DNA from: Myxococcota bacterium | Lineage (GTDB): Bacteria; Myxococcota_A; UBA9160; UBA6930 | Direction: 5' to 3' | DNA length: 64,000 nucleotides | NCBI GenBank assembly: GCA_965223705.1 | Contig: OZ245015.1 | Span: 672,001-736,000 of the forward strand | Shown here: positions 17,748-54,141 of the stretch, in pieces | Layout: every line of letters starts with the position of its first letter | How positions within the stretch are numbered: position 1 is the stretch's first letter | Notes under the pieces: model-generated | What the model was told of the DNA's origin: nothing | Database searches by the model: none | What the model saw: only the letters and a program-made list of their open reading frames with translations | Translations under genes and position numbers: made by a program

Positions 17748-17749
17748 CG

Positions 17750-19105: not shown

Positions 19106-19153
19106 AATCCGCTCCGCGGCGAGAAGCCACGATTCCTGCGAATCGAAACGCTT

Positions 19154-19175
19154 CCGTCACTGTTTTGTCACAGCA
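19154..19175 (+). promoter_or_regulatory. Pho box upstream of the porin gene
   Basis: CCGTCAC-TGTT-TTGTCAC: two GTCAC half-sites with an 11-bp period. Confidence 0.7.
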
Positions 19176-19242
19176 GTCCCGTTAACTGCGGCCGACGGTC
19201 GACAGTCCGTAGCCACGGGCCGGCCGTGGAGGGGAATGGGAC

Positions 19243-20544: not shown

Positions 20545-20572
20545 GCCTTTCGGTGACCCTGCGGGGATTGAA

Positions 20573-20590
20573 ACTTCATCGATCTGTAAC
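20573..20590 (+). promoter_or_regulatory. Candidate Pho box upstream of pstS
   Basis: ACTTCAT-CGAT-CTGTAAC, 11-bp period, about 80 bp before pstS. Confidence 0.5.
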
Positions 20591-20668
20591 GAAGACGCGC
20601 ACAGTCGCGCCGTCCAACCGGGTAGCCTCCCGGGCCAGGCCCAGGGAAACAAAGGGATATCACGCTAC

Positions 20669-21718: not shown

Positions 21719-21734
21719 AATGGCCTCGAGGTAA

Positions 21735-21763
21735 GAGCGGCCGCGGTAACCCCGCGGCCGCTC
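21735..21763 (+). terminator. Intercistronic stem-loop between pstS and pstC
   Basis: GAGCGGCCGCGG-TAACC-CCGCGGCCGCTC perfect 12-bp stem; no U-tract, so more likely mRNA-stabilising than terminating. Confidence 0.55.
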
Positions 21764-21767
21764 ACCC

Positions 21768-23162
21768 TTGGGTGTACTGCCTGTGAATCTAGTTGCCATC
21801 GCCACGTTGCTGCTGCTCACAGCCTCGGCCTTCGTGTTGGGAAGGCGGCGCGCGTTGGCTCTCGTGGGACCCTCCGTCCCCAAACTCCACTCCCGTCCGC
21901 ACTACTACGGTCACTACGTCGCGATTTGGTGCGGTGTTCCAGCGCTACTCGTCGTCTTGGCGTTTCAGCTCGGTTTTCCATGGCTCGCCGACGGACTGAT
22001 CGCAGCGGACGCCCCGGCGGAGGTTCGCGCCGCCGGCTCGGAGACGCTCTCGCGTTGGGTCGCGGACGCGCGGAGCTTGGCCGCGGGCGAGTCGGCGATC
22101 CTCGAGGCCGATGACCGTCTCCGCGCGGCATCGAGGCGCGCGGTGAGCCTCGACCGGATCGGAAATGCTTCGCTTCTCGTTCTGGTGCTAGCCGCTGCGG
22201 CGGCTGGCTTGGCGACCGCGCTTCGCCGCGTTGAACCGAACCTCCGGGCGCGACCCGTCGTCGAAAACGCGGTACGCGCGGTGTTGGCGGGCTGTTCGTC
22301 CACCGCGATTTTCGTGACGGTCGGGATCGTATTGTCCCTGGTTTTCGAGGCGGCGCGTTTCTTCGCCCTCGTATCACCGGCGGAGTTCCTCTTCGACACT
22401 ACCTGGAGTCCCCAGACGGCCCTGCGCAGCGATCAAGTCGGCGCATCGGGAACGTTCGGGGCCGTCCCCGTCTTTGCCGGAACGCTCCTCATCACCGCGA
22501 TCGCCATGTCCGTCGCCGTGCCGATCGGACTGATGTCGGCCATCTACCTGTCGGAATACGCGGGGCCGCGCATGCGTTCGATCGTGAAGCCCCTGTTGGA
22601 AATTCTGGCCGGCATTCCCACCGTCGTCTATGGCTTCTTCGCGGCGCTCAGCGTCGCTCCCTGGGTGCGGCGGTTCGGTGAGTCACTCGGCCTCGAAGTC
22701 GCTTCCGAGAGTGCGTTGGCGGCTGGGCTGGTGATGGGAGTGATGATCATTCCCTTTGTCTCTTCGCTTTCGGACGACGTCATCAACGCGGTGCCGAGCG
22801 CACTGCGAGAGGGCTCGCTCGGGCTCGGGGCCACGCGCTCCGAAACCGTTGTCCGAGTCGTACTGCCCGCGGCGCTTCCCGGCATCGTCGGTTCGATCTT
22901 GCTCGCGGTGTCTCGTGCGATCGGGGAGACGATGATCGTCGTGATGGCGGCGGGCTTGGCTGCGAATCTGACGGCCAACCCGTTTGCGGCCGTGACCACG
23001 GTGACTGTTCAGATCGTGACACTGTTGGTCGGCGACCAAGAGTTCGACAGCGCGAAGACCCTCGCGGCGTTTGCCCTCGGACTTCTCTTGTTCTGCGTGA
23101 CGCTCGCGCTGAACGTTCTGGCTCTTCACGTCGTGCGGCGCTACCGGGAACAATATGACTGA
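21768..23162 (+). CDS. pstC: Phosphate ABC transporter permease
   Basis: KPLLEILAGIPTVVYG, LREGSLGLGAT, SRAIGETMIV. Confidence 0.95.
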   Translation: MGVLPVNLVAIATLLLLTASAFVLGRRRALALVGPSVPKLHSRPHYYGHYVAIWCGVPALLVVLAFQLGFPWLADGLIAADAPAEVRAAGSETLSRWVADARSLAAGESAILEADDRLRAASRRAVSLDRIGNASLLVLVLAAAAAGLATALRRVEPNLRARPVVENAVRAVLAGCSSTAIFVTVGIVLSLVFEAARFFALVSPAEFLFDTTWSPQTALRSDQVGASGTFGAVPVFAGTLLITAIAMSVAVPIGLMSAIYLSEYAGPRMRSIVKPLLEILAGIPTVVYGFFAALSVAPWVRRFGESLGLEVASESALAAGLVMGVMIIPFVSSLSDDVINAVPSALREGSLGLGATRSETVVRVVLPAALPGIVGSILLAVSRAIGETMIVVMAAGLAANLTANPFAAVTTVTVQIVTLLVGDQEFDSAKTLAAFALGLLLFCVTLALNVLALHVVRRYREQYD

Positions 23163-24447
23163 GTCGGGAATGAGCACCCATGCATCGGAAGCGGCCAAGA
23201 AGCGGCGCGCCAGGCGACACGCGAGAGAGCGCTGGTTTCGATGGACGGGCTTCGCCGCGATTTCGCTGGCCCTCGGAGCGCTGGCCATCTTGATGGTCAC
23301 GATCGGTGTGCGAGGTGTGCCCGGCTTCTACCGCCACGTCGTAGCCCTGGATGTCCAGTTTGATGCGGAGCGACTCGGCACCGACCTGAGCCTGGATCCG
23401 GAGCTCCGAAACGGAAATTTTGGCGCCTGGGTGAAGGACGCGTTGCAAGTGTCCTACCCCGACGTTACGTCGCGGCGAGATCGTCGCGCCCTCGGCAAGC
23501 TGGTGTCGAGCGGAGCGCCGTACCAACTTCGCGAGCTTCTGCTCGAGGAACCGGACCGTTTAGGTGGGCGACACCGCGTCGTCGTGCCCCTTTCGGCCGA
23601 TGCGGACACGTTCCTCAAAGGGACGATTTCCCGCGATTTGCCCGAGGCCGACCGAAACATAAGCGACGCGCAGATCGCGTGGCTCGACGGATGGGAGGCG
23701 GAAGGCCGAATCGAACGTGTCCTCAACCGGGACTTCTTCACATCGGGGGACAGCCGCGATCCCGAGCTCGCCGGTATCTGGGGAGCCGTCGTCGGGTCTT
23801 TCTGGGCACTCCTGATCGCGTTGGCCGTGTCCTTCCCAGTCGGCGTTGCCGCCGCCGTTCATTTGGAAGAGTTCGCAAAGAAGAGCCGGTTGAACGACTT
23901 CATCGAAGTCAACATCAACAACCTCGCCGCAGTGCCTTCCATCGTGTTCGGTCTACTCGGACTCGCGGTCTTCTTAAACTTCATCGGGATGCCACGATCC
24001 GCGCCACTGGTCGGAGGGATGGTGCTTTCGCTGATGACCCTTCCCGTCGTGATCATCGCGTCGCGTTCGGCGATTGGTGCGGTTCCGCCGTCGATTCGAG
24101 AGGCGGCACTCGGGATGGGGGCTTCGCGCTTGCAGGTCGTCACCCATCACGTTCTTCCACTGGCATTGCCGGGCATCATGACCGGGACCATCATCGGAAT
24201 GGCCCGGGCCCTGGGCGAAACGGCCCCGCTTCTGATGATCGGTATGGTGGCGTTTATCGTCGACGTCCCGGACGGGCCGTTGGCGCCGTCCACGGCCCTG
24301 CCGGTCCAAATCTACTTGTGGGCGGACAGCCCCGAGCGAGCTTTCGTCGAAAAGACCTCTGCGGCCATTCTTGTGCTTCTCGCTTTCCTCATTGCTATGA
24401 ACCTGGTCGCAGTCCTTCTACGGAACCGGTTCGAGCGACGCTGGTAG
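23155..24447 (+). CDS. pstA: Phosphate ABC transporter permease
   Basis: NNLAAVPSIVFGLLG, IREAALGMGAS, ARALGETAPL, ends RFERRW. Confidence 0.95.
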   Translation: MTESGMSTHASEAAKKRRARRHARERWFRWTGFAAISLALGALAILMVTIGVRGVPGFYRHVVALDVQFDAERLGTDLSLDPELRNGNFGAWVKDALQVSYPDVTSRRDRRALGKLVSSGAPYQLRELLLEEPDRLGGRHRVVVPLSADADTFLKGTISRDLPEADRNISDAQIAWLDGWEAEGRIERVLNRDFFTSGDSRDPELAGIWGAVVGSFWALLIALAVSFPVGVAAAVHLEEFAKKSRLNDFIEVNINNLAAVPSIVFGLLGLAVFLNFIGMPRSAPLVGGMVLSLMTLPVVIIASRSAIGAVPPSIREAALGMGASRLQVVTHHVLPLALPGIMTGTIIGMARALGETAPLLMIGMVAFIVDVPDGPLAPSTALPVQIYLWADSPERAFVEKTSAAILVLLAFLIAMNLVAVLLRNRFERRW

Positions 24448-24456
24448 GGAGGATTG

Positions 24457-25230
24457 ATGCCGGGACCTGAATATTTGACCAAGATCAGCACACGTGATCT
24501 CAGCGTCTTTTACGGGGACAAGCAGGCCATCTTCGATGTCAATCTCGATATCGGAGCGCGCCGGGTCACCGCGTTGATCGGCCCTTCGGGCTGCGGCAAG
24601 TCGACTTACCTGCGTTGTCTCAACCGCATGAACGATGTCATCGAATCGTGCCGCGTGGAAGGCAAGATCACAATCGACGGCGACGACATCTACGATCGAT
24701 CGATCGACCCGGTGCAGCTTCGTGCTCGGGTCGGCATGGTGTTTCAGAAGCCGAACCCGTTCCCGAAATCCATTTTCGAGAACGTCGCCTACGGGCCCCG
24801 GATTCACGGGTTGGCAAACGGCCGCGAAGAACTCGAGCACATCGTCGTTACCAGTCTCGAGCGGGCGGGCTTGTTCGACGAAGTGAAGGACCGCCTCCAC
24901 GAACCGGGCACCGGGTTGTCAGGAGGACAGCAGCAACGGTTGTGTATCGCCCGGGCGATCGCCGTCGATCCCGACGTGATCTTGATGGACGAGCCGTGCT
25001 CTGCTCTCGATCCCATCGCTACGGCGAAGATCGAAGAGCTCATGACGGAGTTGCGAGAGAAGTATACGATCGTCATCGTGACGCACTCTATGCAACAAGC
25101 GGGACGGGTCTCGCAACGAACGGCGTTCTTCCATCTGGGCGTGTTGATCGAAGAGGGCGAGACTGGACAGATTTTTACCGACCCCAAACACGAAATGACT
25201 CAGGACTACATTACTGGGCGCTTCGGTTAG
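24457..25230 (+). CDS. pstB: Phosphate ABC transporter ATPase
   Basis: [40 protein letters not shown]. Confidence 0.97.
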
Positions 25231-25243
25231 ATCGGGAGATGCG

Positions 25244-25924
25244 ATGACACGCATCGTCGAGCCGTTCATTCAGGATCTGCGCGAGAAGGTGCTCCAGATG
25301 GGGCGTCTTTCCGAGGAGATCCTCGAGAAATCGATGCGGGCCGTGTTCGATCGCGACCGCGAGCTCGCCGATGAGATCGGCAAAGACGATCTCGAAATCG
25401 ACCGCTTCGACCTGTTGATCGATGAGTCGGTGCTCAGGGCCTTGGCACTTCAAGCGCCACTCGCCGATGACCTCCGCTTGGTCATCGCGATCAAGATGAT
25501 GGCAACGGATCTCGAGCGCGTCGGAGATCTCGCCCGCAACATCGCAAAATGCGCAGTCCGCCTCTCGGAGCATCCGGAAGTCACGGTACCTTCGAAGCTC
25601 AAAGATCTCGCGTACGAGGCGCAACGTCTGCTCCGCCGTGCGATGGACAGCTTCAGCCGAAGCGACGTGCTGCGCGCCGAGAGCGTTCTCGACGACGACG
25701 ATCAAGTCGATTCCGATCAGGACGAGGTCGTCCGCCAAGCGGTTCTTCAGATTACGCAGCACCCGGAGCTCAGCAGCCAAGGAATCGATTTCATTTTGAT
25801 CGCAAAGAACCTCGAGCGCGTGGCCGATCACGCGACGAATATCGCGGAAGAAGTGATCCTCTGGACCGACGGCCGCAACTTGAAGCACGCGGGCAAGCTC
25901 CAGACCGGAGCGTCTGGCGCTTAG
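25244..25924 (+). CDS. phoU: Phosphate signalling protein PhoU
   Basis: QAPLADDLR, DLERVGDLA, LERVADHATNIAE. Confidence 0.95.
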   Translation: MTRIVEPFIQDLREKVLQMGRLSEEILEKSMRAVFDRDRELADEIGKDDLEIDRFDLLIDESVLRALALQAPLADDLRLVIAIKMMATDLERVGDLARNIAKCAVRLSEHPEVTVPSKLKDLAYEAQRLLRRAMDSFSRSDVLRAESVLDDDDQVDSDQDEVVRQAVLQITQHPELSSQGIDFILIAKNLERVADHATNIAEEVILWTDGRNLKHAGKLQTGASGA

Positions 25925-38245: not shown

Positions 38246-40687
<2,442 letters not shown>

Positions 40688-40721
40688 CGAATCTTCGGAA
40701 TCCGCCTGCGTCGGAGAGTGC

Positions 40722-41435
40722 ATGCCCGCAAGAACCCGCGCCACTTCGCTCGCGGCCGCGTTGCTCGTCGGCCTGCTCCTCGGCATCGGTGCCCAGGGCG
40801 GCGGCGAGACGGATCGGGAGCACCCCGCACGCAACGGTTCGGGCTGCGCAGAATCGCTGTCGGTACGCGTCCAGGCGTACTACGACCGGATTCGCGGGCT
40901 CCGCGCAGATTTCGAACAAGTGAGCCGCAGCGTGGCGCTCGGCGCCGGAGAGGCCGCGACCCAATCCTCGAGGGGCAACGTCACGCTCGCCAAACCCGGG
41001 AGAATGCGGTGGGAATACACCGGGCCCGAGCCGAGTCTCGTCGTCAGCGACGGAACCACGTTGTGGATCTACGATCCGGAAGCCTCGGAAGTCCAGGTTC
41101 TTCCGATGACGGGAGACAGCCTGAGCGGGGCGGGACTTCAATTCCTCTTCGGCGAGGGCAAGCTCACGGACGCGTTTCAGATTGCGGCCCGGCGTTGCGA
41201 TACGGATCGGCCGGAGCTTGTACTGACGCCCAAGGACGAAGCGCTCTTCGAAAGGATCATCCTCGAGGTCGATCCCGAAACCGGAGTGGCCCGCGGGACC
41301 GAGATTCGAGACCTCTTCGGAAACCGCACGGAGCTCGTGCTTCACGACATCGAGACCGACGGCGACTTCGACGACGGAATGTTTCGGTTCGAGCCGCCCG
41401 AGGGCACCCGAGTCCACCGACTCGAAGGGCCGTAG
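40722..41435 (+). CDS. lolA: Outer-membrane lipoprotein carrier LolA
   Basis: ADFEQ, KPGRMRWEY, VSDGTTLWIYDP, FRFEPPEG; follows ftsK. Confidence 0.88.
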   Translation: MPARTRATSLAAALLVGLLLGIGAQGGGETDREHPARNGSGCAESLSVRVQAYYDRIRGLRADFEQVSRSVALGAGEAATQSSRGNVTLAKPGRMRWEYTGPEPSLVVSDGTTLWIYDPEASEVQVLPMTGDSLSGAGLQFLFGEGKLTDAFQIAARRCDTDRPELVLTPKDEALFERIILEVDPETGVARGTEIRDLFGNRTELVLHDIETDGDFDDGMFRFEPPEGTRVHRLEGP

Positions 41436-41694
41436 GCCGACGCCTTTGCGCGCCCATTAAAGGGAACACCGCTTCCGGGATTGCGGTGGAACCGCGTACT
41501 CCACCCGAGAAAAGCGTCAAAATCGTGTCACGGCGTCGGCAGACTTGCATCTCGAAACGGCATGCGCGGCGCAATTGACGGTCCAACCCGGCGCTTTTTC
41601 AGGAAAGCGATTCCCCGCGCAGGGGCGCGGTGCGAAATCATCAAAAAGTGTTTTATTTTCGAATAGTTAGCTTGCCCGCGGGGGCCCCGTCCGG

Positions 41695-41722
41695 TTGACA
41701 GCCGGGGGGCGTCTGATATTCT
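41695..41722 (+). promoter_or_regulatory. Candidate sigma-70 promoter
   Basis: TTGACA (41695)-16 bp-TATTCT with an extended TG, in an AT-rich intergenic patch. Confidence 0.55.
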
Positions 41723-42043
41723 TAGTTTCCTAAAAGTAGAGAAAAAACAAGCACTTGCGAGTTTTTTCTCGTGTCCGGGCACCCGACGGAGAGGGTAGGA
41801 CGTCGGAAGCGGCGAAGGAGGCGCGCAACGAGAGCCGCTTCGCGACCCGCTTTTGGCTCCTTTTGTCGAGAAATGGCCGGGTGTCGAAGGGAATTGTTTG
41901 TTAGACCGCCCGAACCAAGCCTGGATGGTCGGAAAACGGCACGCAACGGCCTCCGAAAGCCCGCGCGGTCGGTGCACTCTTGGTGAGGGTTATTTCGTCC
42001 GGTTGGAGCCGGCAGCCATAGAGCCCACCCTCTTCCGCTCACG

Positions 42044-42059
42044 CGGCACGGGCTTTGCA
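42044..42059 (+). promoter_or_regulatory. Candidate sigma-54 (-24/-12) promoter of the proteasome operon
   Basis: CGGCACGGGCTTTGCA versus consensus TGGCACG-N4-TTGCW, exact GG-N10-GC spacing, about 60 bp before the arc ATG. Confidence 0.65.
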
Positions 42060-42117
42060 CTAGTGGGCTGCGGGAAACTCGTCCCAGGTGGCGGGTTCGA
42101 AAAGGGGAGAGGGCGCG

Positions 42118-43977
42118 ATGAGCGAGTTCGATTCGGATTCTTCAGACGGACGAGGAGGCCCCTCGGGCCGGAGATTTGGGCGCGGCGATCGCCGTCCCGT
42201 CCCGGTATCTCCCCGCGGCGAGCGGGGGGGCGACGGGGAGCGTGAGCGAGCCATGGCCCGGTCTTTCCAAGAAGAAATTGAAGACCTCCGGGAAGCGATG
42301 CGCTTCTTCGGGGGCGATTCAGTGGAGTTTCGCCGCCGCTTAGACCGCGTGCTGGCCGAGCACGAGGCGCTGCGCCGTCGCTTCCACGTGTCTCGCGAAC
42401 AGCTGACCGACGCCGAGCGGCAGAACGAGAAGCTCGTGCACACGTTGCAGGAAGCGAAGCAGCAGATCGAGCTGCTGAAAGAGGAAGTCGACAAGCTCTG
42501 CGCGCCGCCGAACACTTACGGCGTCTACCAGCGCTCGAACAAGAACGGAACGGTTGAAATCGTCGTGGACGGGCGCCACATGCGCGTCAATGCCCATCCC
42601 GATCTCGATGTCTCGACGCTCGAAGAGGGCCAACTGGTCGTCCTGAACGAAGCGTTCAACGTCGTCGAGTCGTCGGGCTTCACGCAACGCGGTGAGATCG
42701 CGGCGGTTGTCGAGTTGCTCGGCGACGGTCGGGCGATTGTCCTCGGGCACACGGACGACGAACGCGTCGTGACCCTCGCGTCACCTCTGCGAGCCGGCAA
42801 GTTGAAGGCCGGGGACAACATCCTGTTCGACCCGCGCACGCAGTACGCGTTCGAGAAGATGCCGAAGTCCGCGGCCGAAGAAGTCGCGCTGGAAGAGATT
42901 CCGGACGTGACGTATTCGAACATCGGCGGACTCGACGAGCAGGTCGAGATCCTGCGCGACGCGATCGAGCTTCCCTACATGCACCCGGAAGTGTTCCTCG
43001 AGCACAAGCTGTCGCCTCCGAAGGGCATCCTGCTCTACGGCCCTCCGGGCTGCGGCAAGACGCTCATCGCAAAGGCCGTCGCGAACAGTCTCGCGAAGAG
43101 CATCGAGAAGCGTACAGGGCGGGCCACGCCGGCTTACTTCCTCAACGTGAAGGGCCCGGAGCTTCTGAACAAGTACGTCGGCGAGACCGAGCACAAGATT
43201 CGCGAGGTCTTCCGACGCGCCCGCGAGAAAGCGAACGAAGACGTCCCGGTCGTGATCTTCTTCGACGAGATGGATTCGCTCTTCCGCATGCGCGGTTCGG
43301 GCATCTCCTCCGATATGGAGGCGACGGTTGTCGCACAGTTCCTGTCGGAGATCGACGGCGTCGAATCGCTGAAGAACGTGATCGTGATCGGCGCGAGCAA
43401 CAGGCAGGATCTCATCGATCCGGCGGTGCTCCGCCCGGGACGCCTCGACCTGAAGGTCAAGGTCAATCGCCCGGACGAAGCTGCCGCGCGCGACATCTTC
43501 TCGAAGTACCTGACGACGGATCTTCCGTTCCACGCGGATGCGGAGCGCCACTACGGCAGCGATCCGGCGAAGATCGTCGACGGCATGCTCGCCGAGGTCA
43601 TCGAGGGCATGTACTCGACCGGAGAAGAGAACAAGTTCCTCGAGGTGACCTACGCCAAGGGCGAGCGTGAGATCTTCTACTTCAAGGATTTCTCGAGCGG
43701 CGCAATGATCGAAAACATCGTGGCGCGCGCCAAGAAGAAGGCCGTGAAGCGGGCGATCGACCACGACGAGCGTGGTATCAAGGCCGACGATCTCCACGAA
43801 GCGGTGCGGGAAGAGTTCAAAGAGAACGAAGATCTTCCGAACACCACCAACCCCGACGATTGGGCGCGGATCTCCGGACGCAAGGGCGAGCGCATCATCA
43901 ACGTGCGCACGCTCATCACCGGGATCAGCCGCAAAGAGCGCTCGATCGAGAACATCGAGTCGGGGCAATACGTCTAG
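42118..43977 (+). CDS. arc: Proteasome-associated AAA ATPase (ARC/Mpa)
   Basis: N-terminal coiled coil ending KLCAPP, OB-like region, GPPGCGKT, FLNVKGPELLNKYVGE, FFDEMDS, ENEDLPNTTNPDDWARISG, C-terminal GQYV. Alternative start 42253. Confidence 0.96.
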   Translation: MSEFDSDSSDGRGGPSGRRFGRGDRRPVPVSPRGERGGDGERERAMARSFQEEIEDLREAMRFFGGDSVEFRRRLDRVLAEHEALRRRFHVSREQLTDAERQNEKLVHTLQEAKQQIELLKEEVDKLCAPPNTYGVYQRSNKNGTVEIVVDGRHMRVNAHPDLDVSTLEEGQLVVLNEAFNVVESSGFTQRGEIAAVVELLGDGRAIVLGHTDDERVVTLASPLRAGKLKAGDNILFDPRTQYAFEKMPKSAAEEVALEEIPDVTYSNIGGLDEQVEILRDAIELPYMHPEVFLEHKLSPPKGILLYGPPGCGKTLIAKAVANSLAKSIEKRTGRATPAYFLNVKGPELLNKYVGETEHKIREVFRRAREKANEDVPVVIFFDEMDSLFRMRGSGISSDMEATVVAQFLSEIDGVESLKNVIVIGASNRQDLIDPAVLRPGRLDLKVKVNRPDEAAARDIFSKYLTTDLPFHADAERHYGSDPAKIVDGMLAEVIEGMYSTGEENKFLEVTYAKGEREIFYFKDFSSGAMIENIVARAKKKAVKRAIDHDERGIKADDLHEAVREEFKENEDLPNTTNPDDWARISGRKGERIINVRTLITGISRKERSIENIESGQYV

Positions 43978-43980
43978 GGC

Positions 43981-44002
43981 CCCGGCCCTCCGGAGGGCCG
44001 GG
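43981..44002 (+). terminator. Stem-loop between arc and dop
   Basis: CCCGGCCCTC-CG-GAGGGCCGGG perfect inverted repeat, with only a short CTTT after it. Confidence 0.5.
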
Positions 44003-44031
44003 AGCTTTGCAACCGCGATTGAGGAGCCTGG

Positions 44032-45516
44032 ATGGCGATACCCAAAGTGATGGGTACGGAGATCGAATACGGAATCACCGTTCAAAACGACAGTGACTTC
44101 GATCCCATTTCCAGCTGCGTCCTTTTGGTCAACGCCTACCGCGAAGACCACGAAGGGCAGATCCTCTGGGATTACGATCAGGAAAATCCGCTAGCAGACG
44201 CCCGCGGTTTTCAGGTCGACGGCGAGAAGTACACGCCGAACCAGCAAGAGAACATCGCTCGCAACAAGACGCTGGTGAACGGCGCGCGCTACTACGTCGA
44301 CCACGCGCATCCGGAGTACTCCTGCCCGGAAGTGACGAACGCCCGGGATCTCGTGATCCACGAGAAGGCCGGCGAGCGCATCCTCGAGTTGTCTCGCCGC
44401 GAAGCGAACGCATTGCTCCCCGCCGGTACGCAGATGTTGATCTACAAGAACAACAGCGACCGGAAGGGCAACAGCTACGGGTCACACGAGAACTACTTGA
44501 TGGACCGTCGCACGTCCTTCAAGCAGATCGTCGAGTACCTGATGCCGTTCTTCGTAAGCCGTCAGGTCTACACCGGCGCGGGAAAGGTCGGCAGCGAAAA
44601 CCGCGCGCAGCCTTGCGACTACCAGACGAGCCAGCGATCGGATTTCTTCGAAACCGAAGTTGCGCTCGACACGATGGTGAAACGACCCATCATCAACACG
44701 CGCGACGAGCCGCACGCCGACCGCGAAAAGTATCGCCGCCTGCACGTCATCGTCGGCGACTCGAACATGAGCGAGTACACGATCTTCCTGCGCAACGGAG
44801 CGACGGCCCTGGTGCTCGAGATGATCGAAGACGGAGCGATCGACCGCGATTTCTCCCTGCGGGACCCCGTGCGCGCGATCAAGGAAGTGTCTCATGACAT
44901 CGCCTGCAAGCGCCCGCTGGAGTTGCAGAGCGGGCGCAAGCTCACCGCGGTTGAGATGCAAAAGGAGTATCTCGAGCTCGCCGAGCGCCACTTCGCGAGC
45001 CGGGAAATCTCCGAAGAGCAGCGCGACGTATTGAACAAATGGGCCTACGTGCTCGACACGCTATCGGGCGAGCCACGCGATCTGGCCCGTGAGATCGACT
45101 GGATCATCAAGCTCCAGATGATCGAAGGGTTCATGGACCGGAAGGGTCTCGACTGGGAATCGAGCCAGGTACAGATGCTCGACCTGCAATACCACGATCT
45201 CCGACCGAACAAGGGGCTGTACTACCTTCTCGAGAGGCAGGACAAGGTCGAGCGCATCGTGACGGACGACGAGATCACACGGGCGATCACACGTCCGCCC
45301 GAAGACACTCGGGCGTATTTCCGCGGAGAATGCCTGCGCAAATATGGAAGCGAGGTCTTCGGCGTGAACTGGGATTCGATTTCTTTCGGAATCGGCGACG
45401 ATCCCATCAAGCGCGTGCTGATGGCAGAACCCCTCAAGGGTTCGCGGCAACACGTCGAGGAACTATTGGCGACTTCGCCGACTGCGGCGGAGTTGGTCGT
45501 TAACCTCCGAGCCTAG
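44032..45516 (+). CDS. dop: Pup deamidase/depupylase Dop
   Basis: MGTEIEYG, Dop loop WDYDQENPLADARG, NGARYYVDHAHPEYS, INTRDEPHAD. Confidence 0.92.
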   Translation: MAIPKVMGTEIEYGITVQNDSDFDPISSCVLLVNAYREDHEGQILWDYDQENPLADARGFQVDGEKYTPNQQENIARNKTLVNGARYYVDHAHPEYSCPEVTNARDLVIHEKAGERILELSRREANALLPAGTQMLIYKNNSDRKGNSYGSHENYLMDRRTSFKQIVEYLMPFFVSRQVYTGAGKVGSENRAQPCDYQTSQRSDFFETEVALDTMVKRPIINTRDEPHADREKYRRLHVIVGDSNMSEYTIFLRNGATALVLEMIEDGAIDRDFSLRDPVRAIKEVSHDIACKRPLELQSGRKLTAVEMQKEYLELAERHFASREISEEQRDVLNKWAYVLDTLSGEPRDLAREIDWIIKLQMIEGFMDRKGLDWESSQVQMLDLQYHDLRPNKGLYYLLERQDKVERIVTDDEITRAITRPPEDTRAYFRGECLRKYGSEVFGVNWDSISFGIGDDPIKRVLMAEPLKGSRQHVEELLATSPTAAELVVNLRA

Positions 45517-45543
45517 AACGATGGGTCCGGACGGGAGAGAGTG

Positions 45544-45816
45544 ATGAGTCGAAAATTCCGAGCGGAACACAGCGCCAACGCGAACGACGCAGCGTTTGGA
45601 TTCGTCCGCGCCGCCGAGAGCACCCAGAAGCAGAAACAAGGCGGCGGTGGCGAAGGCGGCGACGGTGAGAAGAGCGGCGATGGGGCCCAGAAGCTCGCCA
45701 AGAAGGGCGAAGAGCTCAAAGAAGAAATGGACGCGCTGGTAGACGAGATCGACGAAGTCCTCGAAGAAAACGCCGAGGAGTTCGTGAAGAACTACGTCCA
45801 GCGCGGCGGCGAATAA
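45544..45816 (+). CDS. pup: Prokaryotic ubiquitin-like protein Pup
   Basis: DALVDEIDEVLEENAEEFVKNYVQRGGE-stop, a classic Pup C-terminus; lies between dop and prcB. Confidence 0.95.
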   Translation: MSRKFRAEHSANANDAAFGFVRAAESTQKQKQGGGGEGGDGEKSGDGAQKLAKKGEELKEEMDALVDEIDEVLEENAEEFVKNYVQRGGE

Positions 45817-45838
45817 CAGCAACCAGCGAAGTACAGCG

Positions 45839-45865
45839 GCGGGGTTCGCGGAAGCGAAACCCCGC
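45839..45865 (+). other. GNRA-capped hairpin between pup and prcB
   Basis: GCGGGGTTCGC-GGAA-GCGAA(A)CCCCGC. Confidence 0.5.
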
Positions 45866-45900
45866 GACGGCGGTATCGCGCGACGGCGGAGGGGACGTCA

Positions 45901-46698
45901 GTGCGCTTCCGGTTTCACGATGGCTATTTCGGATCGAGCTTTTCCGAGCTCGTCGATTCGGAATGTCCCAATCTGCGACCCGATTTCGACAAATGGAAAG
46001 ACAACGCCGGGACGCTGAGTTCCGAGGGCACGACGGTGCTGGCGCTCCGGTACGAATCCGGCGTGCTGATGGCGGGCGATCGATTGGCGACCATGGGAAA
46101 CCTCGTCGCTTCCCGCGAGATCCAGAAAGTCTATGCAACCGATCCGCACTCGCTGATGGCGATCGCAGGCGCGGCAGGGCCCGCGATCGACATGGCGCGA
46201 CTCCTCCGGATTCAACTCGAACACTACGAAAAGATCGAAGGCGCCCCGCTCGAGCTCGAAGGTAAGGCCAACACGCTCGCAGGGCTGATCAAACAGCACC
46301 TGCCAATGGCGATGCAGGGTCTCGTGGTTGTTCCGCTCTTCGCGGGCTTCGACCACCGACGGCAACTGGGCCGCCTGTGGCGCTACGAGCCGACCGGCGG
46401 TCGCTACGAAGAGCGCAACTTTGACAGCGTCGGTTCCGGATCGATGTTCGCGCGCGAGTCGCTGAAGAAGTCGTATCACCAACAGCCGACGCGGGAGGAC
46501 GCGCTGCGGATGGCGGTCGAGGCGCTCACCGATGCCGCTGACGAAGATACGGCGACCGGCGGTGTCGATCCCATCCGCGGCATCTATCCGTTGATGAAAA
46601 TCTGTGATCGCGACGGCATCACGGATATCGCCGACGAGGAAGTCGGCGCGATTTACGAAACGATCGTCTCCGCGCGCCGGGACCGAGGAGTTCGCTAG
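45901..46698 (+). CDS. prcB: 20S proteasome beta subunit
   Basis: Propeptide with GSSF; G|TTVLAL (Thr1 at 46030), AGDRLATMG, GSGSMFAR, ADEDTATGG. Confidence 0.96.
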   Translation: MRFRFHDGYFGSSFSELVDSECPNLRPDFDKWKDNAGTLSSEGTTVLALRYESGVLMAGDRLATMGNLVASREIQKVYATDPHSLMAIAGAAGPAIDMARLLRIQLEHYEKIEGAPLELEGKANTLAGLIKQHLPMAMQGLVVVPLFAGFDHRRQLGRLWRYEPTGGRYEERNFDSVGSGSMFARESLKKSYHQQPTREDALRMAVEALTDAADEDTATGGVDPIRGIYPLMKICDRDGITDIADEEVGAIYETIVSARRDRGVR

Positions 46699-46700
46699 CC

Positions 46701-47399
46701 ATGTCGCTTCCGTTCTACGTCTCGCCGGAGCAGATGACGCAAGACAAGGCGGAGTTCGCGCGCAAAGGCATCGCGCGCGGGCGCTCCCTCGTTACGCTCG
46801 AATTCGCCGACGGCATTCTGCTCGTCGCGGAGAACCCGCTCAATCTCTCGAAGATCGGCGAAATCTACGATCGCATCGGGTTTGCCGGCGTCGGCAAGTA
46901 CAGCGAGTTCGATCGGCTCCGCCAGATGGGGATCCAGTACGCGGACATTCAGGGGTTCCGTTTCAGTCGGGAAGACGTGCGCGCGAAAGCCCTTGCGAAC
47001 CTGTATTCCCAGACCATCGGCGACGAGTTCAACCGCTCGATCAAACCGCTCGAGGTGGAAATCGTGGTCGCGGAAGTCGGCGACCCCGAAAGCCCCCACC
47101 ACGCCGCGAACTCGCTCTACAACGTCAATTTCGACGGCAGTATTCTCGAACTCGAAGGTCACTGTGTGATCGGTGGCGCGAACGAGAACGTCAAAAGGCA
47201 CGTAGAGACGAACTATCAGGAAAATATGCCCCTAGGGGAAGCTCTTCGTCTGGGCCGGGATGCACTACAGCGTGCAGAGAACGGCACCACGGACCTCCCC
47301 GCGGAGAGCCTCGAGGTTTGCTTGTTGGACCAGAACCGGCCCGGCCGAAAGTTTCGCCGACTTTCTGCCGATGAAGTTCGGGTTACGCTGGATCGGTAG
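46701..47399 (+). CDS. prcA: 20S proteasome alpha subunit
   Basis: MSLPFYVSPEQ...EFARKGIARGRS, KIGEIYDRIGFAGVGKYSEF, KPLEVEI, LEVCLLD. Confidence 0.96.
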   Translation: MSLPFYVSPEQMTQDKAEFARKGIARGRSLVTLEFADGILLVAENPLNLSKIGEIYDRIGFAGVGKYSEFDRLRQMGIQYADIQGFRFSREDVRAKALANLYSQTIGDEFNRSIKPLEVEIVVAEVGDPESPHHAANSLYNVNFDGSILELEGHCVIGGANENVKRHVETNYQENMPLGEALRLGRDALQRAENGTTDLPAESLEVCLLDQNRPGRKFRRLSADEVRVTLDR

Positions 47400-47416
47400 G
47401 GAAGGCCGGGTCGGTC

Positions 47417-48823
47417 GTGCAGAAGCGCATTTTCGGAGTCGAAACCGAATACGGCATCATTTTCACGCCGGAGGGTCGTAAGACACTCCCGGTGGAGAAG
47501 GCGATCCGCTTCCTCTTCGAAAAGCTGATCACCACCGAGCACTTCCTCAACGTATTCCTCGAGAACGGCGCCAGGTTCTACCAGGACACCGGGTGCCACC
47601 CCGAATACGCGACGCCCGAGTGCGCGGCGCCGCGCCAGCTCATCGTCTACGACAAGGCCGGAGAGCGGATTCTCGAAGATCTTCAGAACTACGCCGAAGA
47701 GAAGATCCGGGAAGAGCGCATCGCCGGGAAGCTCTCCATCTTCAAGAACAACACGGATTTCGTGGGCAACAGCTACGGTTGCCACGAGAACTACCTGGTC
47801 GATCGCGACGTCGACTTCTACTACCTGGCCGAGCAGCTGATCCCGTTTCTCGTGACCCGGCAGGTGTACTCAGGCGCCGGCAAGGTCTTCCAGACGCAAG
47901 ACGGCGTTCATTACTGCGTCAGCCAGCGCGCGCAGCACATCTACCAGAAGATCTCCGGAACGACGACGAACGATCGTTCGATCATCAACACCCGGGACGA
48001 ACCTCACGCCGATCGCGAGAAGTATCGGCGCCTTCACGTGATCGTCGGCGACTCCAACATGTCGGAGTACACGAACTTCCTGAAGATCGGCGCTTGCGCC
48101 GTTGTCCTCCAGATGATCGAGGACAACTACATCAACAAGGACTTCACCCTGCGCAACCCGGTGAAGGCCATCAAAGACATCTCCCACGACACGACGTGCA
48201 AGCGGAAGCTGCGCCTCGACAACGGTCGCGAGTACTCACCCATCGAGATTCAGCGCGAATACTGTGAGATGGCGCTCAAGTACATCGAGGACTACCCGGT
48301 CAGCGATGAGCTCCGACAGTCCGTGTCGATGTGGGAGCACGTGCTCGATTGTCTCGAGGACGATCCCGACAAGCTCGATCGCAAGGTCGATTGGGTCATC
48401 AAGCGCAAGATGATTCAGTCTGTGATCGACAAGCGCGGCATGCGCTGGTCCGATCCTCGCATCTTCATGCTCGATCTTCAGTACCACGACATTCGCGTGA
48501 ATCGAGGCCTCTACTACCTCCTCGAGCGACGCGGCGCCGTGGACCGCATTCTGAACGACGACGAGATCATCAAAGCGAAGACCGAGCCGCCGCCGGACAC
48601 ACGCGCGAGGATGCGCGGCGAGTTCATCAAGCTCGCTCGCCAGAACGGAATTCAGTACGACCTCGACTGGTCGAATATCCGGCTCGGAAACTTGTTGAAC
48701 GTACGCGTGATTTGCAACAACCCCTTCGAGACCGACACGGAAAAAGTGGCCGAGCTCGTGAAGACGATCCAGAAGACCAACCTGCGCAAGACGAGCCTTT
48801 CGAAGCTCGTCATTCAATCGTAG
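47417..48823 (+). CDS. pafA: Pup-protein ligase PafA
   Basis: RIFGVETEYG, FLENGARFYQDTGCHPEYATPEC, KNNTD..GNSYGCHENY, SQRAQHI; no Dop loop. Confidence 0.93.
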   Translation: MQKRIFGVETEYGIIFTPEGRKTLPVEKAIRFLFEKLITTEHFLNVFLENGARFYQDTGCHPEYATPECAAPRQLIVYDKAGERILEDLQNYAEEKIREERIAGKLSIFKNNTDFVGNSYGCHENYLVDRDVDFYYLAEQLIPFLVTRQVYSGAGKVFQTQDGVHYCVSQRAQHIYQKISGTTTNDRSIINTRDEPHADREKYRRLHVIVGDSNMSEYTNFLKIGACAVVLQMIEDNYINKDFTLRNPVKAIKDISHDTTCKRKLRLDNGREYSPIEIQREYCEMALKYIEDYPVSDELRQSVSMWEHVLDCLEDDPDKLDRKVDWVIKRKMIQSVIDKRGMRWSDPRIFMLDLQYHDIRVNRGLYYLLERRGAVDRILNDDEIIKAKTEPPPDTRARMRGEFIKLARQNGIQYDLDWSNIRLGNLLNVRVICNNPFETDTEKVAELVKTIQKTNLRKTSLSKLVIQS

Positions 48824-48835
48824 GGCGCACCGACC

Positions 48836-49213
48836 ATGCCGGTGAGTGACGGTGGCGGGCATCTGCGGGCGGTTCCGGAAGGCGACGGTCCCGCCGAGGC
48901 TCCGTCGGCTCCTCCTCGCGCGTCCGGTTCCGGTGGCCGCGCGCGTATCGTGTTGCTGTCCGCCCTCGCCTTGGGACTCCTCGTCGCAGGCTTCGGTTGG
49001 TTTACCTCGCAGCAGCGCGCCACCGCCCTTCAGGCCAAGCTCGACGCGGTGAGCGGGCAGCTCCGCGACAGCGAGAACGCGCTCCGTGCGACGACTGAGG
49101 AGCTCGCGGCTCGTAGGTCTCACTTCGCGCGGGTGAAGAGCTCGGTCGACGCGTTGGCCGTCGAGCTCGACGGGCTCCGATCGGTCATCCGAGAAGAGCC
49201 GAAACGTCCGTAG
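48836..49213 (+). CDS. Hypothetical single-TM coiled-coil protein
   Basis: TM segment IVLLSALALGLLVAGFGWF followed by a heptad-like helix; starts 12 bp after the pafA stop. Confidence 0.65.
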   Translation: MPVSDGGGHLRAVPEGDGPAEAPSAPPRASGSGGRARIVLLSALALGLLVAGFGWFTSQQRATALQAKLDAVSGQLRDSENALRATTEELAARRSHFARVKSSVDALAVELDGLRSVIREEPKRP

Positions 49214-49416
49214 CTCCCGCGTTCTCGGCCTCTCTAAGCGCAACCCCTGCGCAGTCTCTCATCAGAAACACGCAGTTGTAACGCTCTCGCGAGAGTCTTC
49301 CACGCTCACGCAAGAATTCGTCTAGGCACTGCAAATTGCTACTCAGCACAATGCGAAGCACGGCCGATACATCCTCCGGAGTCTAAGCCCCCATCTCCGT
49401 GCGGAGGATGACTGCG

Positions 49417-50451
49417 ATGTTGTTCGACCCGATCGCAGGAAGAATGTCGAGCGATCTAGCGATCGATCTAGGGACCGCGAATACGTTGGTCTACGTTCGC
49501 GGCAAAGGGCTCATTTGTTCAGAGCCTTCGGTTGTCGCCGTCACCGACGATGAATCGGGCCGCCAGAAGGTGCTCGCCGTCGGTCACGAGGCGAAGGAAA
49601 TGCTCGGGCGAACGCCCGGGGGCATCCAGGCGATCCGCCCGATCAAAGACGGTGTGATCGCGGACTTCGAAATTACCGAGGCGATGCTCCGCTACTTCAT
49701 CCAGCGAGCGCACAATCGTCGCAAGCTGGTCCGCCCCCGAATCGTTATCTGCGTGCCGCCGTGTATCACGAGCGTCGAGAAGCGCGCTGTTCGCGAATCG
49801 GCGTTGTCCGCGGGAGCGCGCGAGGTGTTTCTCATCGAAGAGCCCATGGCCGCGGCGATCGGAGCCGGGCTCGACGTGACGGCTCCGACGGGCAACATGG
49901 TCGTCGATATCGGTGGCGGCACCACGGATGTCGCCGTGATCTCGTTGTCGGGAATCGTGACGTCACGATCGATCCGCTGCGGCGGCGACTCGATGGACGA
50001 AGCGATCATCAACTACGTGAAGCGCAAGTACAACATGCTGATCGGCGAACGGACCGCCGAGAACATCAAGATGACCATCGCGACGGCCTCCGCCACGTCG
50101 AAGACCGAGACGATGGAGATCAAAGGCCGCGATCTGGTGGCCGGCATCCCGAAAGTCGTTGTCACGACGAGCGACGAGATTCGAGAATCTCTCGTCGAGC
50201 CGATCAGCGCCATCGTAGAGACCGTGCATCTGGCGCTCGAACGAACGCCGCCCGAGCTCGCCGCCGACATCGTCGATCGCGGGATCATGTTGGTCGGTGG
50301 TGGCTCGCTCCTGCGCGACCTCGATCAGGTGCTGCGCCAAGAGACGAAGCTACCGATCCTGCGCAGCGAGGATCCTTTCACCGCCGTAGTCCACGGTGCC
50401 GGTGTGGCCCTCGATAACCTCGAGCTGCTCCGAGACGTCGCGATCCGCTAG
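49417..50451 (+). CDS. mreB: Rod shape-determining protein MreB
   Basis: IDLGTANT, EPSVVA, EEPMAAAIG, DIGGGTT, PPELAADI; GGAGG RBS. Confidence 0.97.
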   Translation: MLFDPIAGRMSSDLAIDLGTANTLVYVRGKGLICSEPSVVAVTDDESGRQKVLAVGHEAKEMLGRTPGGIQAIRPIKDGVIADFEITEAMLRYFIQRAHNRRKLVRPRIVICVPPCITSVEKRAVRESALSAGAREVFLIEEPMAAAIGAGLDVTAPTGNMVVDIGGGTTDVAVISLSGIVTSRSIRCGGDSMDEAIINYVKRKYNMLIGERTAENIKMTIATASATSKTETMEIKGRDLVAGIPKVVVTTSDEIRESLVEPISAIVETVHLALERTPPELAADIVDRGIMLVGGGSLLRDLDQVLRQETKLPILRSEDPFTAVVHGAGVALDNLELLRDVAIR

Positions 50452-51900: not shown

Positions 51901-54141
51901 TCAGCGAGATTCTTCCGCGGAGGACGCGTCTTCTTTCAACCACGCCTCGCGTCGACTGAGTGCGAGCTCCGCGGCCCGCTTGAGCTGTGCGTCTCGACTT
52001 TCACCGACCCGCGACAACGCGGCCGCGGCGTCGTCTCCGGGGATCTTGGCCAAAGCGCCGATCGCCGTGAGCTTGAGCTCCCGCAACTTGCGGCGGCCGA
52101 AGCGTTTCTTTCTTTGCAGGAGCTCCGCCAAGATCGGCGCGCACTCGGGCTGGCCCTGTTTGCCGAGCGCAAAAATCACTTCTTTCGCGCTCTCGTTGTC
52201 GTCTTCCGCAAGGCAAGAAGCGAGGGCTTGCGCCAAGGTCTCGCGCACTCCGGGGCCCTGGCAGCGGCCGAGCGCCACCGCGGCTTGGCGTCGCAGCTCG
52301 TCGCGTCCGTGAAGCAGGGCTCCGCGCAAGGCGTTGACAGCTTCGGCGTCGTCGCGGTTTGCGAGCGCACCCGCCGCTTCTTCGCGGATCGCGCCCTGTT
52401 CGTGGTTCAGCAATTTCGCGAGGGGCCCAACCGGAGCGGGTAAGTTGAACTCTCGCAGCAACCGAGCCGTAGAGAGCAGCGACGCCGGGTCGGAGTTCAT
52501 GAGCTGGGCCAAGACCGCATCGCGCGCGGGCTCACCCAAGCTCGCAAAGAGCTTCGCGCCGGCTTGCCGGCGATCTTCGTCGCGCTCTTTGACGAGGTCC
52601 CGAAGGAGGACGGGCGCCGTACGCTCCGGGAGGGCCTGCAGGATCTTCGCCGCTGGGCCTTCCGAGTCGCCGTCCTCGAGACTCCGTTCGAGCCAGTTCT
52701 CGAGTCCTCCGTCGTGCGCGAGAGAATTGAGGCCCCGCAGTGCGTGTTCGCCGCGCGGCGTACCGTCGAACTCCTCTGCGTGGCCGGCGAGGAGCAGCGC
52801 GAGGTCGAAGGACACTTCTGAACGATCCGTCGGGAGCGCGTACAACACGGCTTCGAGGGTAGGCTCGTAGGCGGTCTCGTCGGCCGCTCCCAGCTGGACA
52901 AGCAATTCGTCGTAGTCGGTGGTGTTCTCGCCGAGAGGTGCGTCTCTCGGCGCGGGCGGTTCCGCGACCACCGGCGCCGACGGCGCGACCGTTCCGTCGT
53001 CGGTTTCCAGCTGCGGCAGAGCGGACGCTTCGCCGTCGTCACGCTCGTCGATCTCGAGTTGCGGTAGCTCCGTATCGTCGGAGAAATCGGCGACTGTCTG
53101 TGCGTTCGCGTCGAGCTCGCTCCCGGTATCGAGGTCGGTGATTTCCGCACCTTCGTCGGTTTCGAGAACGTCGGCGTCGGTTTCGCCGGGATCGAGCGGC
53201 TGCGTGTCTCCCGCCGCGAGCGGCTGCGTGTCGCTCGCCCGGTTCGTCGAGGTCTCGGAGGTCGGCGGGAGCGCGCGCGCGAAACGTTCGCTCGTCAGAT
53301 CGGAGAGTGTGTCGAAGAGGCTCGACATCTCGCTGTCCGCGAGGGGAATCGGTGCCGGCCGGTACGGGTTCGTGTGTCGCTCCGGAGGAGCTGCGTCGGA
53401 CACGGGCTCGTCGAGCTCCATGGGGCTCGGTTCCGGCGTTGCATTCGTCAAGATCGAATCGTCTTCCGCCACGGGTTCGGACTCGATGGAATCAGTTTCC
53501 GCCACGGAACCGGTTCCGGCGACGGTGTTGTACCCGGCGGAATCGGCTTCCCCGATGGTGTCGTACCCGGCGGAATCGGCTTCCCCGATGGTGTCATCCG
53601 CGACGTCGGGAAGCGGGATGAGCTGGTCGAGGGCGCGAAGCGAAGGCTGCTCCTCGGGCTTTTCCTCTTCGACCACGTCGCGCAATGGCGGGGGCGCGGA
53701 GGGCGCGACACCGTTGATCAGCAGGCCGCTCGGCGCCCGCCGGTAGACCGACCAGGCAAAGCCACCTTCGCGCTCGATATCTTCGTTTCTCATCACGAGC
53801 GCTTCGAAGAACGCCGCGAAGGCATCGGCCTCGAGGTCGCTCGAAAAACGCAGTTCGCAGGCTCCCCGGTCCAGCAGGGCGTTGTGGAACTTCCCGAGTT
53901 CGCGTTGCATCGCCGGCGGCTCGCCACAGCCGGTGTGCATGCCGTCGGCGTCGATCGCAACGGACAGGTCACCGTGGCGATCCAGATCCGCTCGCCACAG
54001 TTTGAAGGCGCGGTCGAACATGGAAACCAGGCGCCGATCACCGGGGCCATAGTGGGCCCGCGCACGATGTACGCGCGCCGCTTCGAGTAGTAGAGCCGAG
54101 GTGTCCGAAGACACCCGGTTGGCACGGGACATTTCCGTCAT
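51901..54141 (-). CDS. HEAT-repeat protein with a long acidic linker
   Basis: C-terminal HEAT repeats (IREEAAGALA, LRRQAAVALG, AIGALAKI); central Asp/Glu/Pro-rich region. Confidence 0.75.
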   Translation of the reverse strand: MTEMSRANRVSSDTSALLLEAARVHRARAHYGPGDRRLVSMFDRAFKLWRADLDRHGDLSVAIDADGMHTGCGEPPAMQRELGKFHNALLDRGACELRFSSDLEADAFAAFFEALVMRNEDIEREGGFAWSVYRRAPSGLLINGVAPSAPPPLRDVVEEEKPEEQPSLRALDQLIPLPDVADDTIGEADSAGYDTIGEADSAGYNTVAGTGSVAETDSIESEPVAEDDSILTNATPEPSPMELDEPVSDAAPPERHTNPYRPAPIPLADSEMSSLFDTLSDLTSERFARALPPTSETSTNRASDTQPLAAGDTQPLDPGETDADVLETDEGAEITDLDTGSELDANAQTVADFSDDTELPQLEIDERDDGEASALPQLETDDGTVAPSAPVVAEPPAPRDAPLGENTTDYDELLVQLGAADETAYEPTLEAVLYALPTDRSEVSFDLALLLAGHAEEFDGTPRGEHALRGLNSLAHDGGLENWLERSLEDGDSEGPAAKILQALPERTAPVLLRDLVKERDEDRRQAGAKLFASLGEPARDAVLAQLMNSDPASLLSTARLLREFNLPAPVGPLAKLLNHEQGAIREEAAGALANRDDAEAVNALRGALLHGRDELRRQAAVALGRCQGPGVRETLAQALASCLAEDDNESAKEVIFALGKQGQPECAPILAELLQRKKRFGRRKLRELKLTAIGALAKIPGDDAAAALSRVGESRDAQLKRAAELALSRREAWLKEDASSAEESR
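53530..53595. repeat. Exact 33-bp tandem duplication (in frame; DTIGEADSAGY x2)
   Basis: GTACCCGGCGGAATCGGCTTCCCCGATGGTGTC at 53530-53562 and 53563-53595. Confidence 0.92.

Follow-up and report, generated by a model that had tools for sequence, protein, structure and literature searches.

A complete Pup-proteasome operon in a Myxococcota-like diderm and its probable vertical inheritance in class UBA9160

The stretch of DNA analysed here (the window) is a 64,000-nucleotide segment of contig OZ245015.1 from a Myxococcota bacterium, and positions 42118-48823 of its + strand carry six intact, co-oriented open reading frames (ORFs) in the order arc-dop-pup-prcB-prcA-pafA, the gene set of a Pup-proteasome system. 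An initial annotation had recognised six contiguous intact genes here, and both the ORFs and the curated NCBIfam equivalog cut-offs, which all six genes exceed, bear this out. The operon opens with arc/mpa (42118-43977), encoding the proteasomal AAA+ unfoldase (TIGR03689, 735.6 bits against a cut-off of 504.75), followed by dop (44032-45516) for the depupylase/deamidase (TIGR03688, 572.4 bits against 492.3) and pup (45544-45816) for a 90-residue Pup (TIGR03687, 55.6 bits against 41.45; also PF05639). The 20S subunits come next, beta from prcB (45901-46698; TIGR03690, 297 bits against 191.9) and alpha from prcA (46701-47399; TIGR03691, 278.3 bits against 139.05), and the Pup ligase gene pafA (47417-48823) closes the operon, passing its own cut-off narrowly (TIGR03686, 557.2 bits against 551.3).

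In the characterised actinobacterial pathway, as described in PMC8142254 and PMC2588565, Pup is attached through its terminal Glu to lysines by PafA and recovered for reuse by Dop, while Arc unfolds the targets and feeds them to the 20S core. Alignments of the window proteins to solved structures are near full length with catalytic residues kept (PafA to 4b0t, Dop to 4b0r, PrcB to 1q5r and Arc to the Mpa structure 7px9). PafA has the GhExE motif, Glu9, Glu11, Asp57, His123, Thr183, Thr184, Arg193 and Trp418 and is without the Dop-loop. Dop itself has that loop, the catalytic Asp90 and the Asp-His-Ala-His set, and aligns over its full length, loop included, to 4b0r/5lrt. Arc starts at an ATG, with an in-frame GTG at 42088 lying 5' of both the ribosome-binding-like site and the conserved start, and comprises a coiled coil, two OB domains and an AAA domain (PF17758, PF16450, PF00004) before a C-terminal GQYV; a coiled coil, two OB domains, AAA and a GQYL-type end are the features described for characterised Arc/Mpa (PMC8142254). 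PrcB carries a 43-residue propeptide ahead of Thr1 (residue 44, codon at 46030), together with Asp17 and Lys33, and these three residues are kept in all 107 PrcB sequences of the class to which the host belongs (see below). The motifs claimed from the letters alone (Walker A/B, the GQYV end of Arc, the GGE end of Pup and Thr1 of PrcB) are thus all present. The whole genome holds one Pup-ligase-family (Dop/PafA) pair and one prcB/prcA pair. With the gene set complete, all cut-offs passed and the catalytic residues aligned, the earlier proposal of a full tagging and degradation system holds as far as sequence can support it.

The genome (two contigs totalling 4.56 Mb, with 95% completeness and 0.6% contamination) has the markers of a diderm: the window contains lolA upstream of the operon (TIGR00547, 123.8 against 112), a Porin_5 protein and an AsmA/DUF748 protein, and the operon's 4.54-Mb contig also carries two Omp85 genes. 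The best 80 PafA relatives, drawn from GTDB-type genomes, are mostly titled as Myxococcota or Deltaproteobacteria metagenome-assembled genomes (MAGs), including the isolates UBA6930 and SZUA-336 (which we take to be the name of the second order of class UBA9160), with some under other submitter labels such as Spirochaetales and Geobacter. UBA6930 is the sister of the window sequence in two PafA trees, and family UBA6930 has been placed in class Vahlivitia, formerly UBA9160 of Myxococcota_A (10.64898/2026.07.10.737566), which we infer to be the host's class. The markers, the relatives and the UBA6930 placement together support a Myxococcota-like diderm as host, the kind of organism that the initial annotation had proposed.

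Pup-ligase family genes occur in 148 of the 151 genomes of class UBA9160, in 102/104 of those of high quality and in 71 of 72 genera. In a 401-genome sample, Pup-ligase matches were found in 76/78 class genomes against 10/323 others, the latter much weaker. Matches to the 20S beta model rose above the cut-off in 37 of 38 genomes of the class; among 163 genomes from the rest of the phylum none did so, and 49 gave only weak matches. The PAC2 proteasome assembly chaperone follows the same pattern (28/38 against 0/163); in the window's genome the PAC2-family gene (G000:C1:854166-854942) is unlinked to the operon and stands directly behind a two-component pair.

Among 80 related loci chosen by PafA score, arc has lolA upstream in 59, the other 21 being loci that end inside the operon (20) or a lone pafA (1), and mreB lies downstream of the operon in 67. 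A five-protein operon tree was then compared with a four-gene flank tree, using the 32 loci with all nine genes plus the window (33 rows): 13 of 15 strongly supported flank splits were shared, none conflicted, and pairwise distances correlated with rho 0.92. The G+C content at third codon positions (GC3) is 0.76-0.84 in the operon and 0.74-0.82 in host genes. Contigs from public sequencing runs bridge both junctions, lolA-arc (40034-42429) and pafA-mreB (48145-49704), although the runs come from one sample, possibly the source, and so are not independent; the arrangement at both junctions is conserved in relatives. These results support the operon as a core trait of class UBA9160 that is inherited vertically. 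The initial annotation spoke of sporadic Pup/UBact loci outside Actinobacteria and Nitrospirota, but here the locus is class-wide and "sporadic" does not fit. Mobile carriage was considered and rejected, the plasmid and phage collections giving 2 and 1 records respectively, all below 60% identity. A record labelled as bacteriophage (L258:4759-9377, MT835496.1) has arc-dop-pup-pafA without proteasome genes and may be a mislabelled piece of actinobacterial chromosome.

Outside the class, 1.84 billion cluster representatives yielded a single PafA at 63% identity, in a cluster named Ca. Moduliflexus flocculans, with the next full-length matches at 48%; the closest Dop from outside the class belongs to a cluster named Ca. 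Entotheonellia (62%). By sequence, Ca. Moduliflexus is the closest outside PafA relative of the class. Four metagenome loci of Moduliflexota type carry the same six-gene order. In a mixture-model PafA tree of 33 rows, the actinobacterial clade (Ilumatobacteraceae, Nonomuraea and Dermatophilus rows; support 100/98) excludes class UBA9160 (100/98). Class UBA9160 and the Moduliflexota-type PafA pair with 89/60 support under the mixture model and with 96 in the Shimodaira-Hasegawa-like approximate likelihood ratio test (SH-aLRT) of a quick LG+G4 tree of 52 rows, so that a sister relation is moderately supported in trees whose representative rows are mostly unnamed, include no named Nitrospirae row and leave the root weak.

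The region before arc carries two predicted promoters. The initial annotation set lolA directly upstream of arc; this was wrong, as the two genes are about 680 nt apart and the intergenic stretch holds two promoter motifs. The first is a sigma-70-type motif on the + strand at 41695-41722, about 420 nt upstream of arc (TTGACA and TATTCT spaced by 16 nt, a TG preceding the -10 box; 10/12 consensus). The second, at 42045-42059 (+) and about 60 nt upstream of arc, is a sigma-54 (-24/-12) motif and the sole such match in the window, where 0.08 were expected. To survey relatives, 40 loci were hand-picked over 9 of the 11 families rather than by PafA score, giving 33 usable lolA-arc regions, or 34 with the window. 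A sigma-70-type motif lying upstream of the sigma-54 motif occurs in 29/34 (shuffle mean 0.4, maximum 2), and the sigma-54 motif, in a relaxed pattern, lies 41-127 nt before arc in 32/34 (shuffle mean 1.1, maximum 5), with a GG at -24, a GC at -12, 10-nt spacing between them and a conserved distance to the gene. The genome encodes rpoN and 20 sigma-54 activator domains. We read the motifs as most likely tandem promoters, predicted to give basal and inducible expression. A weak candidate for an IHF-like site at 41745-41757 (+) has 1 mismatch to the IHF consensus, and such sites occur in 8/34 lolA-arc regions (shuffle mean 1.9, maximum 5). The lolA-arc intergenic alignment has no evident conserved activator site, an Rfam scan of the 64-kb window gave zero structured-RNA matches, and in the open PMC and bioRxiv literature we found nothing that looks related on sigma-54 and PafA or pupylation.

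PafA is the most conserved of the proteins compared with the class's other order (84% identity, against 76% for MreB, 69% for Arc, 67% for Dop, 52% for PrcB and 49% for PrcA), and 261 of its 468 columns are invariant in 35 sequences. Fourfold-site identity to the other order is 0.38-0.47 for these genes and 0.37-0.53 over all genes compared. A recent pafA sweep behind this conservation is therefore rejected, since its fourfold sites have diverged about as much as its neighbours'. The alpha-loop of PafA, identical in 97/98 class sequences, is the region that Hecht et al. (PMC7947786) connect with target binding and with what separates ligase from hydrolase, and call a discriminatory factor. At the 22 positions in Table 1 of that paper, the window PafA has the Dop residue only once. 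As a result of this fixed and remodelled loop, PafA probably differs in target range from its actinobacterial counterparts.

The second peculiarity of PafA is its C-terminus, about 18 residues longer than that of Nonomuraea PafA. The extension (residues 451-468, 48767-48820, + strand) is near-invariant in the class, and the protein ends in SKLVIQS at all 79 intact ends among the loci selected by PafA score and all 36 among the hand-picked loci, two sets that overlap. An AlphaFold2 model of PafA has a mean predicted local distance difference test score (pLDDT) of 91, falling below 50 for residues 457-468. Conserved yet predicted to be disordered, the tail suggests a motif for binding or for turnover/degradation. 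An amphipathic helix was rejected for the last 15 residues (moments 0.09-0.27), and a link to the Pup leader or the Arc helix described next is unlikely, as the tail persists where either is missing.

Pup and Arc have N-terminal additions of their own. The window Pup has only a long start, giving an extension (about 45544-45615) ahead of the canonical Pup start. Among 103 distinct class Pups, 77 have the longer start with a ribosome-site-like motif, 23 the short canonical start only and 3 are ambiguous. These extensions are about 20 residues long and, on a loose pattern, 62/77 have hydrophobic residues and Ala-Ala just before the short-Pup start; removal of the extension as a leader is a guess. 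At the other end, 70 of the 103 terminate in GGE and 33 in GGQ, and all 69 intact Pup ends of related loci have one or the other. Arc ends in GQYL or GQYV in 64 of 65 relatives. Its N-terminus has a motif of the type GFVRDVMRRIS in 69/86 Arcs when matched strictly, the other 17 including several close variants, and a related motif in 4/4 Moduliflexota-type loci. As a candidate amphipathic membrane anchor, the motif has a hydrophobic/polar pattern that is helix-like by eye, with a hydrophobic moment of 0.74, not significant since 9.4% of shuffles reach it; the ESM Atlas places the Arc N-terminus in proteasome ATPase clusters only.

The system can be set against those already described. The actinobacterial one (with structures from Mycobacterium, Rhodococcus, Acidothermus and Corynebacterium) has the same six genes, order and catalytic residues, a GQY[L/V] tail, a Thr1 protease, the Dop-loop only in Dop and an unlinked PAC2. 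Here, by contrast, the host is a diderm, PafA falls outside the actinobacterial clade and has a fixed, remodelled alpha-loop and an 18-residue tail, Pup has an N-terminal extension, tandem sigma-70/sigma-54 motifs precede arc, and HslVU coexists with the proteasome; Barandun et al. (PMC3511204) describe actinobacteria as without HslVU. The Moduliflexota-type loci, known from genomic sequence only, are much closer, with PafA 60-65% identical, the same gene order, GQYL, GGE, a nearly identical alpha-loop, the N-terminal Arc helix motif (4/4) and a C-terminal PafA extension. They differ in having a shorter, basic-aromatic PafA tail, other neighbours and no sigma-54 motif before arc in any of the 4 loci. 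Nitrospirae (Leptospirillum) likewise combine a complete Pup-proteasome with a Gram-negative host, in a different phylum, as reported in PMC3511204, PMC7947786 and PMC5666114.

UBact-type systems in Gram-negative bacteria were reportedly described by Lehmann in 2017. They combine a PafA/Dop-like pair, a small tag and a proteasome in diderms. The window tag differs in matching PF05639/TIGR03687 and no other Pfam family, UBact included, and a search of the genome with the UBact model PF20513 found nothing, its control being silent. Many metagenome Arc-Dop loci at about 40% identity (L159-L230), possibly UBact-type, have an Arc that ends in two aliphatic residues rather than GQYL. A PafA-family gene is also carried by Plesiocystis, a Myxococcota relative; Iyer 2008 (PMC2588565) describes the Plesiocystis/Rhodopirellula PafA-like proteins as having transmembrane inserts and no linked proteasome, and the window genes are unlike this type. 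In five genomes of the class's other order (L246:1474-3276 and L247-L250) there is a third PafA/Dop-family gene of about 600 residues with a long hydrophobic insert, which resembles that membrane-inserted type; in L246 and L248 it stands between mutM/fpg-like and gatA-like genes (named by eye) with no Pup seen, and the window's genome does not have it. Two class genomes (at L233:5211-9917 and L234:963-6645) hold divergent second systems at about 30% identity, with an Arc-like ATPase and two PafA/Dop-like genes, between which L234 has a small ORF ending in GGE. Lone pafA genes outside the operon, 81-83% identical and with the tail intact, occur at L232:6898-8514, preceded by a prcA fragment, and at L102:6927-8330.

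Published accounts (PMC3511204, PMC5666114, PMC7947786) describe bacterial proteasomes as actinobacterial and attribute Nitrospirae and sporadic draft-genome cases to transfer from Actinobacteria; Hecht et al. (PMC7947786) also note that homologues turn up sporadically in draft Proteobacteria. No paper on pupylation or the proteasome in Myxococcota, UBA9160, Moduliflexus or Entotheonella was found in the open PMC and bioRxiv literature. To that extent the system is uncharacterised here, as the initial annotation supposed, although NCBI entries already name these proteins in Myxococcota MAGs. Its companion statement, that this is not a wholly unprecedented class of system, agrees with the sequence tests, all of which but the comparison with the positions listed by Hecht et al. 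(described below) place the operon in the known Pup-proteasome family. The core system is already known and new chemistry is not indicated; the novelty is the host group and the conserved additions of predicted function (two promoters, alpha-loop and PafA tail).

We consider it highly probable, from the comparative sequence evidence, that the operon encodes a Pup-proteasome that works and has been passed down vertically since a single gain, either in the ancestor of class UBA9160 or before it. By homology with the characterised pathway, PafA would activate Pup at its terminal Glu, at the expense of ATP, and couple it to a lysine of the target. No deamidation would be needed here because Pup ends in GGE; Dop would strip and recycle Pup, and deamidation would also be required in relatives with GGQ. 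The Arc coiled coil would bind Pup, after which Arc would unfold the target while docked on the alpha ring through GQYV, and self-cleavage of PrcB after Gly43 would expose Thr44 in the 20S core that degrades the target, its assembly probably aided by the unlinked PAC2 protein. The sigma-70 promoter would provide basal expression, boosted from the sigma-54 promoter when an enhancer-binding protein is activated. Mycobacteria use the system in amino-acid recycling, and it is from this and from sigma-54 regulons that nitrogen or general starvation is drawn as the inducing signal, a plausible candidate about which we are slightly more doubtful than convinced. The remodelled alpha-loop probably sets a distinct target range, with the conserved PafA tail probably a binding or turnover motif.

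Several observations weigh against this account. The window PafA matches the PafA-type (M. smegmatis) residue at 8 of the 22 positions in Table 1 of Hecht et al. (PMC7947786), and its alpha-loop keeps 2 of the 9 listed PafA-type residues, with Thr183, Thr184 and Arg193 kept; the sequence set behind that table may omit the clade of class UBA9160. The second conserved alpha-loop Thr of Dop is Met in all 94 class sequences. Other departures are particular to the window or nearly so: its GQYV end is shared by 3/65 Arcs where 61/65 have GQYL, its N-terminal Arc helix motif is decayed (the letters there being confirmed by contigs of two public runs), and its PrcB has Glu before Gly-Thr1, two residues before Thr1, where 105/107 have His. 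Both promoter patterns were relaxed after the data had been seen and the kin genomes are not independent of one another, while the starvation signal is an argument from analogy. Finally, with HslVU, ClpP and four Lon genes also present in the genome, the proteasome may not be its chief protease.

Of the alternatives, the most resilient is a specialised PafA, one that modifies a small, conserved group of targets or acts within a fixed complex, for instance with division or envelope proteins, instead of serving broad starvation recycling. A PafA more conserved across orders than MreB (84% against 76%, with 261/468 invariant columns), the alpha-loop identical in 97/98 sequences and the position of the operon between ftsK-lolA and mreB in most loci would all suit such a role. 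However, the Moduliflexota-type loci pair a near-identical alpha-loop with different neighbours, which means that the neighbourhood in the class may be plain synteny, and Barandun et al. (PMC3511204) note tight clustering of pupylation-enzyme sequences in proteasome-bearing actinobacteria too. We regard a specialised PafA as unlikely. A different possibility is that the main job of pupylation is reversible tagging for regulation or remodelling, carried out via Arc and Dop, with the 20S secondary or eroding. Proteasome-less Corynebacterium provides a precedent, PrcA and PrcB are the operon's fastest-changing proteins (49% and 52% identity across orders), other proteases are available (HslVU, ClpP and Lon), and the window has both GQYV and an odd propeptide residue. 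Against it, beta subunits are present in 37/38 class genomes with Thr1, Asp17 and Lys33 in 107/107, 64/65 Arcs retain the GQY[L/V] docking tail and PAC2 is co-distributed, which together make a tag of this kind very improbable. An assembly chimera or recent import from Actinobacteria or Nitrospirota, for which the only argument is that the system is best known in Actinobacteria, is rejected as a negligible prospect by the lolA synteny (59/80), the congruent trees, the host-like codons and GC3, the bridged junctions and the position of PafA outside the actinobacterial clade.

The vertically inherited Pup-proteasome could also be extended to a larger proposal, which we think unlikely. On this proposal class UBA9160, Moduliflexota and probably Entotheonellia would form a distinct, old Gram-negative branch that is no late actinobacterial loan and that works differently, with a removable Pup leader, targeting by its own alpha-loop, docking or turnover through the PafA tail, Arc tethered by its N-terminal helix in most members (perhaps to the inner membrane), and a burst of proteolysis triggered through sigma-54 alongside HslVU, Clp and Lon.

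HslVU itself bears on an older generalisation. In the window's genome an intact hslV-hslU pair (G000:C1:1077724-1079615), behind an xerC-like gene, provides the only other proteasome-fold gene. HslV is present in 131 of the 151 class genomes, 129 of them with a Pup ligase as well; it was not found in 11/22 genomes of the window's own family. A 2008 statement (PMC3235984) held that no bacterium has both HslV and 20S, the same source noting the two together in a Leptospirillum metagenome. Class-wide coexistence overturns that statement, but the point is minor because later papers (PMC8665760, PMC5666114) had already abandoned mutual exclusivity. A Bpa/PafE search of the genome found none, with a silent control.

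Around the operon, a 125-residue ORF 3' of pafA (48836-49213, +) encodes a single hydrophobic segment and, after it, a coiled-coil-like stretch. ORFs resembling it at low identity lie between pafA and mreB in many relatives, and the ESM Atlas gave unnamed clusters only, at 0.90. In three relatives (L031, L043 and L057) the prcA-pafA gap holds unrelated genes of 1.0-1.9 kb, which suggests separate pafA expression there. Elsewhere, the window encodes an Nmad3 (nucleotide-modification-associated domain 3) protein at 8587-9423 (PF18754, E 6e-76), an ordinary cluster of response regulator, histidine kinase, porin, phosphate ABC transporter and phoU at 17067-25924, and, at 51901-54141 on the - strand, a 746-residue protein whose long middle part is acidic and of low complexity and which also has a short tandem repeat and, at its C-terminus, HEAT repeats.

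For the family as a whole, a diderm class with a core proteasome and a non-actinobacterial PafA offers a large sample in which to test the story of where the bacterial system originated. Its divergent target-binding loop, fixed across the class, is in turn a natural variant for asking how PafA picks its targets.

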